The notes below the pieces were generated by a model. That model did not search any database, was not told the DNA's origin, and saw only the letters and a list, made by a program, of their open reading frames with translations. Below are positions 34,698 through 40,555 of a stretch of DNA of 64,000 nucleotides, piece after piece. Within the stretch, counting starts at the first letter, position 1, and each line of letters opens with the position of its first letter. Location: the NCBI GenBank assembly GCA_035280265.1, contig DATEGE010000005.1:983-64982 (forward strand), written 5' to 3'. The position numbers and the translations under genes are program-made. This DNA comes from Gemmatimonadales bacterium. GTDB taxonomy: Bacteria; Gemmatimonadota; Gemmatimonadetes; Gemmatimonadales; GWC2-71-9.

Positions 34698-35462
34698 TCA
34701 CAAGCCGGTAGGATGGTCCAAGAACGTCCAAGGGAGATGGAACCGCGCGTTCACGTGCTCCGCCAACGCCTTCACACCCACCGTTTCGGTCGCGTAGTGG
34801 CCGGCATAGAACACGTTCAGGCCGAGCTCCTCGGCGTCGAAGAAGGTGTGATGTGGCCCCTCACCGGTGATGAAGGAATCGAGCCCGGCGGCCGCGGCCT
34901 GGGCAATCATCGAGCCAGCTGCCCCGGTGACGATGCCCACGCGCCTCGCTCGCTCCGGGCCGAACGACATCACGCGCGGCGCCGCGCCCAGCAGCTCCGC
35001 AAGTCGTCGCTCCAGCGCGACTCGCGAAGTGTCGACCTCTCCCCACACGCCGATGGGGACGCCGTACTGCTCGCCGAATGGACCTCGGATGGAAACGCCC
35101 AGCTGCCGGGCGAGCACCGCGTTGTTGCCCACGTCGGGATGTAGATCGAGCGGCAGGTGGGCGCTGTAGACCGCGATGTTGGCCGATACCAGCGTCGCAA
35201 CCCGACCGTAGTCGCGCCCGGTCAGCGGGCGCTGCCCTCCCCAAAAGAGACCGTGATGGACGAGCAAGAGGTCAGCGCCTTGCTCCGCCGCCATGCGCGC
35301 AGTGGCCCGGCACAGATCCACGGCGGCGGCTACGCGGCTCACTGTCCCCGCGTTGGAAAGTTGGAGGCCGTTCAGGGCATGCGACGCGTCCGGGACGTCA
35401 CTGACCCGCAGGTAGCCGTCCAAGTAAGCCACCACCTCGACGAGCGTGAAGGGCGTTGTCAC
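34698..35462 (-). CDS. Nif3-like dinuclear metal centre protein (YbgI/GTP cyclohydrolase 1 type 2 homologue)
   Basis: 254-aa ORF from GTG 35462. Motifs: NGLQLSN, ADLLLVHHGLFWGG, GHYATE. Confidence 0.85.
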   Translation of the reverse strand: MTTPFTLVEVVAYLDGYLRVSDVPDASHALNGLQLSNAGTVSRVAAAVDLCRATARMAAEQGADLLLVHHGLFWGGQRPLTGRDYGRVATLVSANIAVYSAHLPLDLHPDVGNNAVLARQLGVSIRGPFGEQYGVPIGVWGEVDTSRVALERRLAELLGAAPRVMSFGPERARRVGIVTGAAGSMIAQAAAAGLDSFITGEGPHHTFFDAEELGLNVFYAGHYATETVGVKALAEHVNARFHLPWTFLDHPTGL

Positions 35463-35554
35463 AAGCGCCAGTAAGCATATTATCTCACCAGATTATCGAC
35501 AGTGATGCGAGATTCCCACATCGGATGGACTGATAACTCTATCTATAGCAGCGA

Positions 35555-35591
35555 GATACGAAATCCACACGGCGAACGGCGGCCGTGTGGA
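35555..35591 (-). terminator. Candidate intrinsic terminator after the bactofilin gene
   Basis: On the minus strand: tccacacggc-cgccgttc-gccgtgtgga (perfect 10-bp stem, 8-nt loop; stem 35564-35573 / 35582-35591). It is followed by tttcgtatc. It begins 12 nt after the bactofilin stop. Confidence 0.6.
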
Positions 35592-35602
35592 AATCCCGGA
35601 CT

Positions 35603-36019
35603 TCAGTAGGCACGCTGCGCCGGTGCCTTTTCGACGGGCACGCTCTCGGCCTCGACCTCGGCCTCGCCCATCCGCACTACGCCGTTGATCTCGCCGCCTT
35701 CCTGTACCAGCAAGCGCTTCGCCACAACGTCGCCATGGACCACGCTGGTGGACTGGATCTCGATGCGTTCGTCGGCGCGAATACTGCCGCGCACCTCCCC
35801 GCCGATGATCGCCTCGCGCGAAATCACATCGCCCTCGACTTCGCCGCCTTTGCCGACGAGTACCTGCCGGGCCGCCCGGACGGTGCCGACGACGGTGCCT
35901 TCGATCTTCACTACGCCATCGGCGGTGATGTCGCCCACGACGCGCATTCCGGTGCCGATGATGGAAAGTCCGGCCTCCGACTCCAGGCCCCCCTGTCCTT
36001 TTTCGACGAACATCGCCAT
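35603..36019 (-). CDS. Bactofilin (polymer-forming cytoskeletal protein)
   Basis: 138-aa ORF. The SD AGGAGAA lies inside the end of the upstream gene. The beta-helical repeat pattern GDITADGVVKIEGTVVGTVRAARQVLVGKGGEVEGDVISREAIIGGEVRGSI is characteristic. Confidence 0.9.
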   Translation of the reverse strand: MAMFVEKGQGGLESEAGLSIIGTGMRVVGDITADGVVKIEGTVVGTVRAARQVLVGKGGEVEGDVISREAIIGGEVRGSIRADERIEIQSTSVVHGDVVAKRLLVQEGGEINGVVRMGEAEVEAESVPVEKAPAQRAY

Positions 36020-36020
36020 G

Positions 36021-36821
36021 TCAGTTCTCCTGTTTCACGACCGTGAGGGGATCGAGCGACTTGCCCTCGCGGCGGATTTCGAAATGGAGATGCGGTGCGG
36101 TCGATCGACCCGAATTACCGGAGAGCGCGATCACCTGCCCCGCCTGCACCGAATCGCCGTCGCGTACCAGGATGCGCGAAGCGTGGCCATACATGGTCTC
36201 ATACCCGCTCGCGTGCCGCAAGAGCACGAACAGTCCATAGGAAGGGTCGGTTCCGGCCGCCTCGACCATGCCACCGCCCGCAGCGCGCACCGGCGTCCCT
36301 GCGGGGACCGCGATGTCAATGCCGGGATGGGATTCGGCGGGGTCTCCCGGGCGGACCTGGCCGCGCGTCACGAAGCCATGCACGTCGAGCGGCCAGTGCG
36401 AAGGCTCCGAGGGACCCGGCTCGTATCGCAGCGGCGCGGACGGAGGCCGGCTGCGCACCGCGATCGCACGCATCAAGTCGGTCGGGGCGGCAGTGGCCTT
36501 TTCGCGAGGAGCTCGGACGCCGAGGATCGAGCGCAGCTCTTGATAGTTCGCCTCGGCGCGATTCAGCGCGGCGGCGAGCTGCTGCACCCTCCCGTTCTCC
36601 TCCTCGAGCCGTGCCACCTCGCGCTCCAATCCGGGGACGCGGGCCGCTGCCCGCGTGATCGGCCCGGCGAACGCGAAGAACAAGACGACGAGCAGCGCGA
36701 TCACGAGCGCGGTCCACTTCCCTGCCTCGAGCGCCCACACCGGCACGCGATATTGTCGCGAGGCGAGATCTCCGTCAGTATGGACGACGATGGTGACGCG
36801 ACGGTCCTTGCGTGGTTTCAT
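36021..36821 (-). CDS. Bitopic M23 (LytM-domain) metallopeptidase with a coiled-coil linker
   Basis: The cytoplasmic N-terminus is MKPRKDRRVTIVVHTDGD. The TM segment is WTALVIALLVVLFFAF. The coiled coil is LEREVARLEEENGRVQQLAAAL. M23 motifs: HPGIDIAVPAGTPV, GNSGRSTAPHLHFEI. An ATGA overlap joins it to the parB stop. Confidence 0.9.
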   Translation of the reverse strand: MKPRKDRRVTIVVHTDGDLASRQYRVPVWALEAGKWTALVIALLVVLFFAFAGPITRAAARVPGLEREVARLEEENGRVQQLAAALNRAEANYQELRSILGVRAPREKATAAPTDLMRAIAVRSRPPSAPLRYEPGPSEPSHWPLDVHGFVTRGQVRPGDPAESHPGIDIAVPAGTPVRAAGGGMVEAAGTDPSYGLFVLLRHASGYETMYGHASRILVRDGDSVQAGQVIALSGNSGRSTAPHLHFEIRREGKSLDPLTVVKQEN

Positions 36822-37711
36822 CCGTCGAACGGCGTGCCCAGGATCAGCTCGAGGAGGCGCGCGAGGTCGTCGTTCGAGTAGAAGTTGACGTGGATCTGCC
36901 CCTTCCCTTTGGCGCGCAGTGACACCCGCACGTCCGTACCGAGGCGCCGGCGCAGCGCGTCCTCGATGCGTCGCACCTCGGGCGCCTGCCCCATGCCCTT
37001 TTTCAGACGCGGGCGGCGGACCGGGGCGCGGCCGCCGCGCACCCGGTCTTCCACGTCGCGCACAGAGAGGCCCAGGTCCACCGCTTCGGTGGCCAGCGAA
37101 GTCACGAGCCGGGCGTCCTCGAGCGCGAGCAGCGCGCGCGCGTGCCCCACCGAGAGGCGGGCCTCATGCAGCAGCGCCAGCACGGCGGACGGCAGCTTGA
37201 GCAGGCGCAGCGCGTTGGCGACGGTGGAGCGGTCGCGCCCGACGGCGTCGGCGACGTCTTGCTGGGTGAGGCTGAATTCAGCGATCAGGCGCTCGTACCC
37301 ACGCGCCTCGTCCACCGGCGAGAGGTCGTCGCGCTGCAGATTCTCGACCAGTGCGAGCGTCAACACCGTCCGATCGTCCACCTCGCGCTTCACGGCGGGG
37401 ATCCTCTCCCAGCCGAGCGCCTGGCACGCGCGGAGCCGCCGTTCGCCCGCGATCAGCTCGAAGCCGCCATTGACGCCGGACACCGGGCGCACCACGACCG
37501 GCTGAAGCAGGCCCGCCTTACGGATCGACGCCTGGAGCTCCTCGAGCGCAGCGGCGTCGACGTCGCGGCGCGGCTGGTACGGGTTCGGACGGATGTCCGA
37601 GATCGCCAACTCTACGAGACTACCTTCGCGCTCGGCCTCTTCGCGGGTCGGACCCAGCAGCGCTTCGAGACCCCGACCGAGACGACGGCGACCTGCGATG
37701 GTTTCGGTCAT
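36818..37711 (-). CDS. parB: Chromosome partitioning protein ParB (Spo0J)
   Basis: Motifs: GRGLEALL, IRPNPYQPRRD, LLQPVVVRP, ELIAGERRLRA. An ATGA overlap joins it to parA. Confidence 0.95.
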   Translation of the reverse strand: MTETIAGRRRLGRGLEALLGPTREEAEREGSLVELAISDIRPNPYQPRRDVDAAALEELQASIRKAGLLQPVVVRPVSGVNGGFELIAGERRLRACQALGWERIPAVKREVDDRTVLTLALVENLQRDDLSPVDEARGYERLIAEFSLTQQDVADAVGRDRSTVANALRLLKLPSAVLALLHEARLSVGHARALLALEDARLVTSLATEAVDLGLSVRDVEDRVRGGRAPVRRPRLKKGMGQAPEVRRIEDALRRRLGTDVRVSLRAKGKGQIHVNFYSNDDLARLLELILGTPFDG

Positions 37712-38541
37712 GCGGTCATCTCCGGCAGCGGTTCAGCGGTGGGCGGGGCGGGGGAGGGAGCAGTCGCGGCGTCGTGCTCGACCCGGCGGATCAGCTCCTG
37801 CGCCACCGCGAGATAACTTTTCGCCCCCACCGACTGCACGTCGTACAACAGGATCGGCTTTCCGAAGCTCGGCGCCTCGGCAAGCCGCACGTTGCGGGGG
37901 ATCGAGATGCCGAACATCTGCGAGCCGAAATACTCTTTCGCCTCGTCGGCCACCTGCTTGGACAAGTTGAGCCGCGCGTCGTACATGGTGAGCAGCACAC
38001 CGTCGATGGCGAGCGCCGGGTTGAAGTTGCGCTGCACGAGCTTGACGGTGTTCAGCAGCTGGGAAAGGCCCTCGAGGGCGTAATACTCGCACTGAATCGG
38101 AATGAGCAGGCTGTCCGCGGCGGTCAGCATGTTGAGGGTCAGCAGACCGAGCGACGGCGGGCAGTCGATCACGACGTACTGATACTGCTCACGGATGTCG
38201 CGCAGCGCGCGGCGCATCATGGTCTCGCGCCCTTGCTCGTTCACGAGCTCGAGCTCGGCACCCACGAGGTCTTGCGTCGCGACGACGACGTCGAGATACG
38301 GGAAGTGCACGTGCGTGAAGCGGGCGTCCGTGAGCGGACGGCCGTCGAGGAGTGCGTCGTACAGGGAGTAGCGAATGCGATCGCGCTCGATTCCGACACC
38401 GCTGGTCGAGTTGGCTTGAGGGTCCGCGTCGACGAGCAGGGTCTTGCGCTCGGCGGTGGCGAGGGAAGCGGCGATGTTGACCGCTGTGGTGGTCTTGCCG
38501 ACACCACCCTTTTGATTGGCGACAGCGATGACGCGCGACAT
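37708..38541 (-). CDS. parA: Chromosome partitioning ATPase ParA (Soj)
   Basis: MSRVIAVANQKGGVGKTTTAVNIAASLA is the deviant Walker A. The protein is 277 aa with a Pro/Ala-rich C-terminal tail. Confidence 0.95.
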   Translation of the reverse strand: MSRVIAVANQKGGVGKTTTAVNIAASLATAERKTLLVDADPQANSTSGVGIERDRIRYSLYDALLDGRPLTDARFTHVHFPYLDVVVATQDLVGAELELVNEQGRETMMRRALRDIREQYQYVVIDCPPSLGLLTLNMLTAADSLLIPIQCEYYALEGLSQLLNTVKLVQRNFNPALAIDGVLLTMYDARLNLSKQVADEAKEYFGSQMFGISIPRNVRLAEAPSFGKPILLYDVQSVGAKSYLAVAQELIRRVEHDAATAPSPAPPTAEPLPEMTA

Positions 38542-38629
38542 GCCTATAAGATATTATATATCAATGTGTTATGTTGTGGTGTTGTTTGAGGCTTGAATAT
38601 AGGGATTGGTACACCGTGCGTAAAGAGCG

Positions 38630-38645
38630 AGTTTCACGTGAAACC
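38630..38645. promoter_or_regulatory. parS centromere-like site 1
   Basis: aGTTTCACGTGAAACc. The 14-bp palindromic core is identical to the canonical tGTTTCACGTGAAACa. Confidence 0.9.
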
Positions 38646-38653
38646 AGGGCGAG

Positions 38654-38669
38654 AGTTTCACGTGAAACA
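38654..38669. promoter_or_regulatory. parS centromere-like site 2
   Basis: aGTTTCACGTGAAACa, a second perfect core 24 bp from the first. It lies between the mnmG stop and the parA start. Confidence 0.9.
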
Positions 38670-38686
38670 CCACGGTTCCGACGAGG

Positions 38687-40555
38687 TCAGGCGACCCGCC
38701 GTCGCCAGCGCATCGCCTCGACCACCAGGTTGTGGAGATCGCTGGGCGACACACCGGGGATGCGGGCCGCCTGAGCGAGCGAGGTCGGTCGAACGCGATC
38801 GAGCTTCTCGCGCGCCTCCGTCGCGAGACTCTTGAGGTCGGGGTAGGGCAGGTCGACGGGCAGCGCGAACGACGCGAGCTCCCCGAGACGCTTCGCGGCT
38901 TCGCGCTCCCGCGCCAGATAGCCTTCATAGCGCAGTTCGATAGCCGCGCTCGCCACCGCGTCGTCTTCGGCGGCCACGTCCGCCCCTGCCGCGTCGAGCA
39001 GCGCTCGCAGTGAGACGCCCGGTCTGCGTGCCACATTCGCCACCCGCTCCGGCTGATCCAACTGTGTGCCGCTCGAGGCGAGGGGCCCTGCGGCGGCGCG
39101 CGGGGTGATAGTGGTCGACCGCGCCAGCGCCAGAACATCCTCTTCTTGCGCAAAGCGCCGCTCGGCCACACGACGCTCGGCTTCCGACAGCAGTCCCAAC
39201 CGCTCGGCGAGCGGCGCCATTCGGCGGAGCGCATTGTCCTGCCGCAGGAGCAGCCGGAATTCGGAGCGCGAGGTGAACAATCGGTAAGGCTCGTCCACGC
39301 CGCGTGTCACGAGATCGTCCACCAGCACGCCGATGTAGGCGTCGTCGCGCCCCAAGATCACAGGCTCCGCGCCCCGGATTCGCCGCACTGCGTTGATGCC
39401 CGCCACCACACCCTGGCCGGCTGCTTCTTCGTACCCCGTCGTTCCGTTGATTTGGCCGGCGAAGAACAGGTGCTCGAGCGGCTTCGTCTCGAGCCACGGC
39501 GTGAGCTGGATGGGCGGGTAGTAGTCGTACTCGATGGCGTAGCCCGGTCGGGTCATCCGCGCACCCTCGAGCCCCGGTACCGCGCGCAGGAACTCGAGCT
39601 GCACGGCGACGGGCAGTGAGGTGGAGAGCCCGTTCACGTACAACTCGTGCGTGTCCAGCCCCTCGGGCTCGAGGAACACCTGGTGCCGCTTGGCGTCGGG
39701 GAACTTCACGATCTTGTCTTCGACCGACGGACAATAGCGCGGGCCCCGTCCGCTGATAGCGCCGCCGTACAGCGCCGACTCCCGGAGGTGGGCGCGGATG
39801 ATGTCCTTCACTTCTTCCCCGGCCCAGGTGATCCAGCACGGGACCTGTCGCGGCAGCTCGGCGCGCTGGTAAAAGGAGAACCGGTAATCGGCACCGTCGC
39901 CGTCTTGGCGCTCCACGCGCGACCAATCGACCGTTCGCCCGTCCACGCGCGGGGGAGTGCCGGTCTTAAAGCGTGACACCGTAAGTCCTAGTGATTCAAT
40001 ATGTTCTGCAACATCGACCGCGGGCTGATCGCCCGCCCGACCGGCGGGAATCTGTGTATCAGTGCCGAGGTGAATGCGGCCGCGCAAGAAGGTGCCGGCG
40101 GTGAGCACCACCGCCTGGGCTCGGAAGCTCCGCCCGTCGGCGGTCACGACGCCGGCGACCCGCGCTCCCTCGAGAATGAGCCGGGTGACCATGCCTTGAG
40201 TCAGCTCGATCTCCCGAAACCCTTCGAGCAGGGAGCGCACCGCGCGGCGGTACAGCGTGCGATCGCACTGGGCTCGCGGCGCCCACACGGCGGGGCCCTT
40301 GGAGCGATTCAGCATCCGGAACTGGATGGTCGCGCGATCGGTCGCCCGTCCCATGATGCCGCCGAGCGCGTCGATCTCGCGCACCACGGTGCCCTTCGCG
40401 ATGCCGCCGATGGCCGGATTGCAAGACATCTGGCCGATCGTGTCGAGGTTGGAGGTGAGTAGCAGGACCCTCGCACCCAGGCGGGCCGCCATCACGGATG
40501 CTTCGGTACCGGCGTGCCCGGCGCCGACGACGATCACGTCGTAGTCGATGCTCAT
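38687..40555 (-). CDS. mnmG: tRNA uridine 5-carboxymethylaminomethyl modification enzyme MnmG (GidA)
   Basis: 622-aa ORF. MSIDYDVIVVGAGHAGTEASVMAARLG...GQMSCNPAIGGIAKG, with family-wide similarity throughout. Confidence 0.95.
   Translation of the reverse strand: MSIDYDVIVVGAGHAGTEASVMAARLGARVLLLTSNLDTIGQMSCNPAIGGIAKGTVVREIDALGGIMGRATDRATIQFRMLNRSKGPAVWAPRAQCDRTLYRRAVRSLLEGFREIELTQGMVTRLILEGARVAGVVTADGRSFRAQAVVLTAGTFLRGRIHLGTDTQIPAGRAGDQPAVDVAEHIESLGLTVSRFKTGTPPRVDGRTVDWSRVERQDGDGADYRFSFYQRAELPRQVPCWITWAGEEVKDIIRAHLRESALYGGAISGRGPRYCPSVEDKIVKFPDAKRHQVFLEPEGLDTHELYVNGLSTSLPVAVQLEFLRAVPGLEGARMTRPGYAIEYDYYPPIQLTPWLETKPLEHLFFAGQINGTTGYEEAAGQGVVAGINAVRRIRGAEPVILGRDDAYIGVLVDDLVTRGVDEPYRLFTSRSEFRLLLRQDNALRRMAPLAERLGLLSEAERRVAERRFAQEEDVLALARSTTITPRAAAGPLASSGTQLDQPERVANVARRPGVSLRALLDAAGADVAAEDDAVASAAIELRYEGYLAREREAAKRLGELASFALPVDLPYPDLKSLATEAREKLDRVRPTSLAQAARIPGVSPSDLHNLVVEAMRWRRRVA

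Follow-up and report, generated by a model that had tools for sequence, protein, structure and literature searches.

Bactofilin-M23 endopeptidase modules and the chromosome partition system ParABS are both well studied, yet they have been treated as separate systems. Here, we report that in a metagenome-assembled genome (MAG) of the Gemmatimonadales the two are joined in one translationally coupled operon, parA-parB-M23-bactofilin, which lies in a 64-kb stretch of contig DATEGE010000005.1 (GenBank assembly GCA_035280265.1; hereafter, the window). That the four genes form a single, translationally coupled, centromere-adjacent operon, whose last two genes are a wall module of the LmdC/BacA type, is well supported. 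Both partnerships, of bactofilin with an M23 endopeptidase and of bactofilin with parAB, are already known; their union in one operon appears to be the new element, and no description of parAB and an M23-bactofilin pair fused in one unit was found in the literature searched.

The four open reading frames (ORFs) are arranged in tandem on the minus strand (Table 1), and their Pfam matches, including Bactofilin (PF04519) and Peptidase_M23, all far exceed the cut-offs, which settles the gene identities proposed in an initial annotation of this DNA. ParA has a deviant Walker A motif of the KGGxGK[ST] type (NQKGGVGKTT, residues 9 to 18), and ParB has the CTPase-fold motif GERRLRA, with ParB_N, HTH_ParB, and ParB_C each above cut-off. 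Together with the parS sites described below, these proteins make up an ordinary chromosomal partition system in which all three ParABS components are present. ParA also carries a Pro/Ala-rich C-terminal extension of ~25 residues (~253 to 277; window 37708-37790; ..HDAATAPSPAPPTAEPLPEMTA). The extension is not shared by more distant relatives, whose alignments end at residue ~255.

The junctions were read directly in the sequence and are as tight as first described. An ATGA joins parA to parB (37711-37708) and another joins parB to the M23 gene (36821-36818), while the M23 stop codon (TGA, 36023-36021) is separated by one base (36020) from the bactofilin start codon (ATG, 36019-36017), whose Shine-Dalgarno (SD) sequence, GGAGAA, lies within the last M23 codons (..CAG GAG AAC TGA). 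A consensus scan for promoters and terminators (35300-38800; promoters by the sigma-70 consensus only) returned a single promoter-like site on the minus strand, upstream of parA, and a single terminator-like site, past the bactofilin gene on that strand. Inside the four genes the scan found no promoter- or terminator-like site, and specifically none between parB and the M23 gene, where a break would have undone the unit as first proposed. Such an arrangement suggests a single transcript.

Within the 64 kb, two matches to parS were observed against 0.03 expected, both in the mnmG-parA spacer, an AT-rich local dip in GC content (46 to 48%). Of 73 related loci, 63 have parS no more than 400 nt upstream of parA, and none has it inside the operon; conserved in this position, parS implies that the operon starts at the centromere itself. 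The two sites in the window abut the predicted -35 hexamer, which suggests that ParB autoregulates the operon promoter.

To place the block in the phylum, the M23 protein was aligned with 34 full-length representatives (35 sequences), the alignment served as the query for a scan in which each GTDB species was represented by one genome, and the best 80 loci were taken. All 80 are from Gemmatimonadota MAGs, except one labeled Chloroflexia that resembles its Gemmatimonadales neighbors, and their M23 proteins are 47 to 90% identical to that of the window. Synteny and overlaps were determined with tblastn and start/stop calling at 83 loci (80 Gemmatimonadales and 3 Longimicrobiales; GC content, 61 to 73%). 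The block first noted in one genome proved to be kept in all 80 Gemmatimonadales loci (with a bactofilin gene downstream of the M23 gene in 79) and in all 3 Longimicrobiales loci. At every locus parB lies upstream of the M23 gene on the same strand, and wherever a locus extends far enough, a parA homologue (52 to 95% identical) is found in the corresponding place. The junctions are kept as well, with 4-nt overlaps between parA and parB (71 of 80 loci) and between parB and the M23 gene (72 of 83); the spacing of the M23 and bactofilin genes is -1 nt at 40 loci, +1 nt at 18, and +2 nt at 11 (69 of 82 in total), and the relatives have an AAGGAGG-type bactofilin SD within M23 codons. The Longimicrobiales have the order parA-parB-M23-bactofilin-NIF3 with looser junctions (17 to 271 nt). 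Upstream, mnmG is conserved in Gemmatimonadales and not in Longimicrobiales, which have different upstream genes; the block is intact in both orders and has thus been conserved while its surroundings changed. The four-gene operon probably dates back to an early ancestor of the Gemmatimonadota.

The M23 protein matches Peptidase_M23 (PF01551; E value, 4e-34) over residues 164 to 258. Its AlphaFold2 model, built from the M23 alignment (predicted local distance difference test [pLDDT] score, 89), comprises a β-hairpin (strands 8 to 14 and 21 to 27), a helix at 28 to 60 that includes the hydrophobic segment 34 to 56, a second helix at 62 to 99 (pLDDT of both helices, 90 to 97), a disordered linker, and the M23 domain (143 to 266), for which the best PDB match was Helicobacter pylori Csd1-Csd2 (root mean square deviation, 1.7). 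The N terminus holds five basic residues, and under the positive-inside rule the protein is predicted to be bitopic, with a short cytoplasmic tail, one transmembrane (TM) helix (~34 to 56), and a periplasmic coiled coil (62 to 99), in agreement with the domain order given in the initial annotation. The tail motif xTIVVxxDG..R..R is conserved across the 35 sequences, in which each of the Zn-binding and catalytic residues (H165, D169, H213, H244, and H246) is either invariant or conserved at 90% or more. Conservation of all the catalytic and metal residues argues against an inactive regulator, and an activator of the EnvC/NlpD type was ruled out on this ground. DD-endopeptidase activity would be expected from the family, and by its predicted architecture the protein is LmdC-like, agreeing point for point with the published description of LmdC.

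The bactofilin has a β-helical core (residues 19 to 115; PF04519 E value, 6e-23) that matches Caulobacter crescentus BacA (2n3d) and Thermus TtBac (6ria), followed by an acidic C-terminal tail of ~23 amino acids that varies among relatives. Its N terminus reads MAMFVEK, that of its relatives M[AGS][IMLV]F[ST].., and that of the Longimicrobiales proteins MFNKK. These N termini resemble the membrane-targeting consensus for bactofilins, MFSKKKK (PMC12448750), in that the hydrophobic pair is present, with few or no basic residues in the window's clade. Polymerization on the membrane would be expected from the family. In a subclade of the Gemmatimonadales (L031, L032, L035, L044, L049, and others), a strongly conserved N-terminal extension, MGIFSNPARDE(E/Q)GNELRRRRTDQIPFSII (bactofilin residues ~5 to 30), sits between the start, which resembles a membrane-targeting sequence (MTS), and the β-helix.

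To look beyond the phylum, metagenomes were scanned with the most divergent M23 representatives as seeds. The block recurs on contigs with 31 to 58% GC, with MnmG 43% and ParA 52 to 56% identical to those of the window; that these contigs lie outside the Gemmatimonadota rests on their GC content (31 to 58%) or low MnmG or ParA identity; L162 (described below) is the one contig named by annotation, as Candidatus Atribacteria. L097 (31% GC) carries mnmG-parA-parB-M23-bactofilin with an ATGA overlap between parB and the M23 gene, and its MnmG is 43% identical to that of the window, versus 59 to 88% in Gemmatimonadota-type loci. L091 (48% GC) and L087 (64% GC) carry parA-parB-M23-bactofilin (ParA 56% identical to the window's), and L093, L123 (58% GC), and L152 (51% GC) carry parB-M23-bactofilin on contigs that end upstream of parB. 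The M23-bactofilin pair is also found away from parAB, in L099 and in Thermus thermophilus and a Thermaceae relative, where the M23 gene lies 1 to 10 nt upstream of the bactofilin gene (TtBac in T. thermophilus) with no parAB nearby; Thermus was for this reason rejected as another phylum in which all four genes are joined. These occurrences mark the pair as a portable unit and conserved core, to which linkage with parAB is an addition specific to some lineages, insertion behind parB being recurrent and not universal. Database proteins in which M23 and bactofilin, or ParB and M23, seem fused (P0068, P0078, and P0079) were set aside as Rosetta-stone evidence, since their frame-shifted filler or abrupt joins mark them as assembly chimeras.

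Table 1. Features of the parA-parB-M23-bactofilin region, in window coordinates.
Feature	Position	Strand	Remarks
parA	38541..37708	minus	277 aa; Pfam AAA_31 (E value, 1e-63), CbiA, ParA, MipZ
parB	37711..36818	minus	297 aa; ParB_N + HTH_ParB + ParB_C; start overlaps parA stop (ATGA)
LmdC-type M23 endopeptidase gene	36821..36021	minus	266 aa; Peptidase_M23 (PF01551); start overlaps parB stop (ATGA)
Bactofilin gene	36019..35603	minus	138 aa; PF04519 (E value, 6e-23); ATG 1 nt past M23 stop
parS site 1, AGTTTCACGTGAAACC	38630..38645	.	2 mismatches; 5 nt upstream of predicted -35 hexamer
parS site 2, AGTTTCACGTGAAACA	38654..38669	.	1 mismatch to TGTTTCACGTGAAACA
Candidate sigma-70-like promoter, TTTACG-17-TATATT	38624..38596	minus	Consensus match only
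Inverted repeat TCCACACGGCCGCCGTTCGCCGTGTGGA	35591..35564	minus	Terminator-like hairpin with DnaA-box-like arms; directly after bactofilin stop
mnmG (gidA), upstream neighbor	38687..40555	minus	ORF and Pfam match
NIF3/DUF34 gene, downstream neighbor	34698..35462	minus	Pfam match; same strand as block

The inverted repeat that follows the bactofilin gene is, as first noted, the sole terminator-like site of the region scanned. It has a 10-bp stem and a folding energy of -25.9 kcal/mol for a 71-nt stretch (z = -3.0 against shuffles). Its arms (TCCACA/TGTGGA plus one flanking base, 7 nt each) are invariant in 22 close relatives at a spacing of 18 to 19 nt, while the inner sequence varies freely; since the seven outer pairs never vary, they provide no covariation evidence for an RNA structure. 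The left-arm 9-mers (TTATCCACA, TTGTCCACA, ATATCCACA, TTTTCCACA, or ATTTCCACA) are DnaA-box variants. The arm 6-mer is ~20-fold enriched in the 200 nt past the bactofilin stop, the palindrome occurs once per locus and always just after that stop (L002 to L025), and in the window three DnaA-like boxes fall within 100 bp (35493-35594), versus 0.64 per kb elsewhere. The palindrome may serve for termination, for DnaA binding, or for both. In more distant Gemmatimonadales (L030 to L080), a related motif, TTCCCACAAT(A/C)GTTGATAAG-N8-10-AGT(G/T)TGTGGA(A/T)A spans the last bactofilin codons (..SHKS*/..SHNS*) and the next 40 nt; because of this overlap, the conserved C terminus of the protein may be constrained by the DNA element. 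An origin of replication (oriC) in the bactofilin-NIF3 spacer, which holds DnaA-box-like motifs, was considered and is not supported, as no dnaA gene was found in the 64-kb window, GC skew is flat, the spacer is only 140 bp long, and the operon would be transcribed toward it; the spacer may instead contain a DnaA-binding or regulatory site.

The AT-rich spacer of 140 nt separates the bactofilin gene from the NIF3/DUF34 gene, which is probably its own transcription unit. In most Gemmatimonadales loci, and in Longimicrobiales too, NIF3/DUF34 follows the block in the same orientation, and in Gemmatimonadales a Bmp/PnrA-like lipoprotein gene often stands between it and the bactofilin gene; in L039 (6789-7011), the M23 gene is followed by a 220-nt gap and then by the Bmp lipoprotein gene and NIF3. 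On the other side, parA comes directly after mnmG. In other bacteria rsmG (gidB) usually stands between these two genes, and it is absent here (38542-38686). Just upstream of mnmG is a gene for a 23S rRNA-intervening-sequence protein (PF05635; 40635-41012), in a stretch of lower GC content (58 to 62%). An Rfam scan of 35200-38900 gave nothing meaningful, with a chance ALIL match only (E value, 0.68).

Pohl et al. (2024, PMC10945521) described adjacent bactofilin and M23 genes for 226 species across many phyla. Among the entries available from that species list none is from the Gemmatimonadota, and the text searched does not discuss parAB context. The list includes an M23-bactofilin pair of Halothermothrix orenii, which would lie about 12 kb from the chromosome end. 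A close counterpart is LmdC-BacA of Hyphomonas neptunium and Rhodospirillum rubrum, in which M23 and bactofilin genes are likewise adjacent. LmdC, too, is bitopic: its short cytoplasmic tail forms a β-hairpin, a TM helix leads to a periplasmic coiled coil, and the C-terminal M23 domain retains the full set of metal and catalytic residues; in R. rubrum, the cytoplasmic β-hairpin is the BacA-binding site (PMC10945521). Compared with LmdC-BacA, the pair described here, known from sequence and model, is fused into a parAB operon with overlapping cistrons. The M23-TtBac pair of T. thermophilus is also a two-gene unit with a 1-nt gap, and the Thermus M23 protein likewise has an N-terminal hairpin (RYTLLLARSGGGSRALTFPGW) followed by a TM helix and a coiled coil; unlike here, the flanking genes are a pyrimidine-nucleoside phosphorylase gene and accD/accA, without parAB. 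M23 genes also adjoin bactofilin genes in Csd1/Csd2-CcmA of H. pylori and BB0246-BbbG of Borrelia burgdorferi, but those loci lie outside parAB operons, and the Csd1-CcmA link has been described as possibly indirect (PMC13393453).

Bactofilin genes behind parAB have precedents as well. In Myxococcus xanthus, parA-parB-bacM-MXAN_7474 is reported to be a cotranscribed operon (PMC3899335, citing Koch et al. 2011), so that there, too, a bactofilin, the cell-shape bactofilin BacM, is cotranscribed with parAB near the origin; unlike here, parB and bacM have no M23 gene between them, and MXAN_7474, the last of the four genes, encodes a lipoprotein. Deletion of bacM left ParA and ParB localization unchanged (Lin 2017, PMC5703909), and BacM and MXAN_7474 are dispensable for segregation (PMC5703909, PMC3899335). 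In Bdellovibrio bacteriovorus, parA3-parB-bd3904 is cotranscribed as determined by reverse transcription-PCR (RT-PCR) (PMC7186360, PMC10547168); the bactofilin gene bd3904 lies immediately downstream of parB, and no M23 gene is described in the cluster. The bactofilins that do organize ParABS in Myxococcus, BacNOP with the adaptor PadC, are encoded away from parAB (PMC5703909). They provide the model, a bactofilin functionally linked to ParA and ParB, for the hypothesis of the initial annotation, but they need the ParB-like PadC and a long BacP tail; here, neither a PadC-like gene (in the 64-kb window) nor such a tail is present. The statement that bactofilins organize ParABS in Myxococcus thus holds for BacNOP and not for BacM, the bactofilin of the parAB operon. 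Likewise, the two partnerships do share one operon, as claimed, in the form of the four-gene unit, but the parA-parB-bactofilin clusters of Bdellovibrio and Myxococcus make this less unprecedented than it had seemed.

We propose that the region would work as one operon, parS-promoter-parA-parB-lmdC(like)-bactofilin. The bactofilin would polymerize on the inner face of the membrane by way of its N-terminal M-A-[MIV]-F motif and would capture the conserved cytoplasmic β-hairpin of the bitopic M23 protein, the hairpin being the putative binding site. Such capture would fix the position of the periplasmic DD-endopeptidase domain, leading to local loosening of peptidoglycan cross-links. With four translationally coupled cistrons and a promoter abutting two parS sites, the wall module would be made together with the partition proteins, co-timed and in fixed proportion to them, possibly under ParB control. 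Selected coexpression and co-timing of partition and wall genes, possibly under the control of ParB, is the reading that we consider most likely, and we hold it with slightly more confidence than doubt. At minimum, the link to segregation consists of coexpression and an origin-proximal position.

Several observations weigh against this reading. In Longimicrobiales, the gap between parB and the M23 gene is 22 to 271 nt, and such loose junctions mean that translational coupling is not universal. L039, which alone among the 80 Gemmatimonadales loci has lost the bactofilin gene, keeps the M23 hairpin, and the window's bactofilin has one lysine in its putative MTS. L144 (52% GC) and L162 (35% GC) carry parA-parB-M23 with no bactofilin gene detected downstream (in 5 kb for L144; L162, whose ParB is an annotated Candidatus Atribacteria protein, ends ~320 nt past the M23 gene, so that a bactofilin gene could still lie there), and their M23 proteins have the same N-terminal hairpin motif, TM helix, and long coiled coil. 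Apparently, parB and the M23 gene can be linked even where no bactofilin gene adjoins them, and from these Atribacteria-like contigs the hairpin may have other partners. The promoter and terminator are consensus matches; the T-tail of the hairpin is weak (ATTTCGTATCT), and its invariant arms are possibly protein-binding sites instead of a terminator.

A stronger link would be physical, with the bactofilin scaffold also holding ParB-parS and/or ParA in the manner of BacNOP-PadC and the M23 protein tying the scaffold to a site in the envelope. Origin positioning would then be mechanically linked to local peptidoglycan hydrolysis, as in pole maturation, division-site preparation, or the formation of polar spherical appendages. 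This possibility draws on the phylum-wide block of overlapping cistrons, on parS within ~130 nt of the operon start, on the recurrence of the arrangement in unrelated low-GC lineages, and on BacNOP itself, and it would suit a phylum that has no Min, MipZ, or PomZ and in which division-site placement and polar appendages are unexplained (PMC11271474). We nevertheless regard it as rather unlikely. BacM, the only bactofilin of a parAB operon to have been tested, had no effect on ParA/ParB localization or segregation; neither a PadC-like gene nor a second ParA- or ParB-like ORF was found in the 64-kb window; the bactofilin tail is short, variable, and unlike that of BacP; and in Thermus and the studied alphaproteobacteria the M23-bactofilin pair functions without linkage to parAB. 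Physical coupling of segregation to wall remodeling, which the initial annotation drew from gene order, is thus unsupported as stated there, the BacM precedent being negative, and it would remain an inference from that order.

The opposite extreme, that a portable M23-bactofilin pair landed behind parB and was kept by inertia or compaction, the two modules being unrelated and their coexpression tolerated, strikes us as equally doubtful. The mobility of the pair through many contexts (PMC10945521; Thermus; L099), the BacM precedent, and the equally conserved and unrelated NIF3 gene next door all fit such hitchhiking. However, inertia alone is hard to reconcile with parAB-bactofilin operons in Myxococcus and Bdellovibrio as well, or with parB-M23(-bactofilin) recurring on contigs of very different GC content (ParB identity, 37 to 46%); moreover, the block stayed intact while its upstream context changed between the two orders, and the ATGA overlaps were kept though M23 proteins are only 47 to 90% identical to that of the window. 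Separate transcripts, with parAB and M23-bactofilin adjacent but divided by an unrecognized internal promoter, would accommodate the 271-nt parB-M23 spacer of the Longimicrobiales loci L082 and L083, and the sigma-70 consensus used in the scan may not be the Gemmatimonadota's own. This arrangement seems very improbable given the 4-nt overlap of parB stop and M23 start at most loci, the lack of promoter- or terminator-like sites inside parB or the M23 gene of the window, and the operon precedent set by parAB-bactofilin cotranscription, determined by RT-PCR in Bdellovibrio and reported for Myxococcus. Coexpression and co-timing remain the reading that we prefer. Far more speculative, and in our judgment quite unlikely, is the idea that the bactofilin/LmdC-like pair is the missing spatial organizer of the Gemmatimonadota, which would tie ParB-parS to a wall site and set where the wall opens for division, asymmetric fission, or polar spherical appendages, encoded by the parS-adjacent operon, whose 3' boundary would be marked by the invariant pair of DnaA-box-like sites, a solution that would have been reused in several unrelated phyla with parA-parB-M23-bactofilin.

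Gemmatimonadota make up a sizeable part of soil communities. No link between bactofilins and this phylum was found in the literature searched, and the one cell-biological study of Gemmatimonadota mentions neither bactofilin nor M23 proteins (PMC11271474). With this operon, the known range of the LmdC/BacA module grows by a phylum that is absent from the available entries of the published survey (PMC10945521). If its genes are coexpressed and no more, as with BacM in Myxococcus, it would be a natural example of stoichiometric coupling at the operon level. The locus is a concrete candidate for timing or placing wall remodeling relative to chromosome segregation, especially in Gemmatimonadota, and it would become far more significant were ParB or DnaA shown to be connected to it physically or through regulation.

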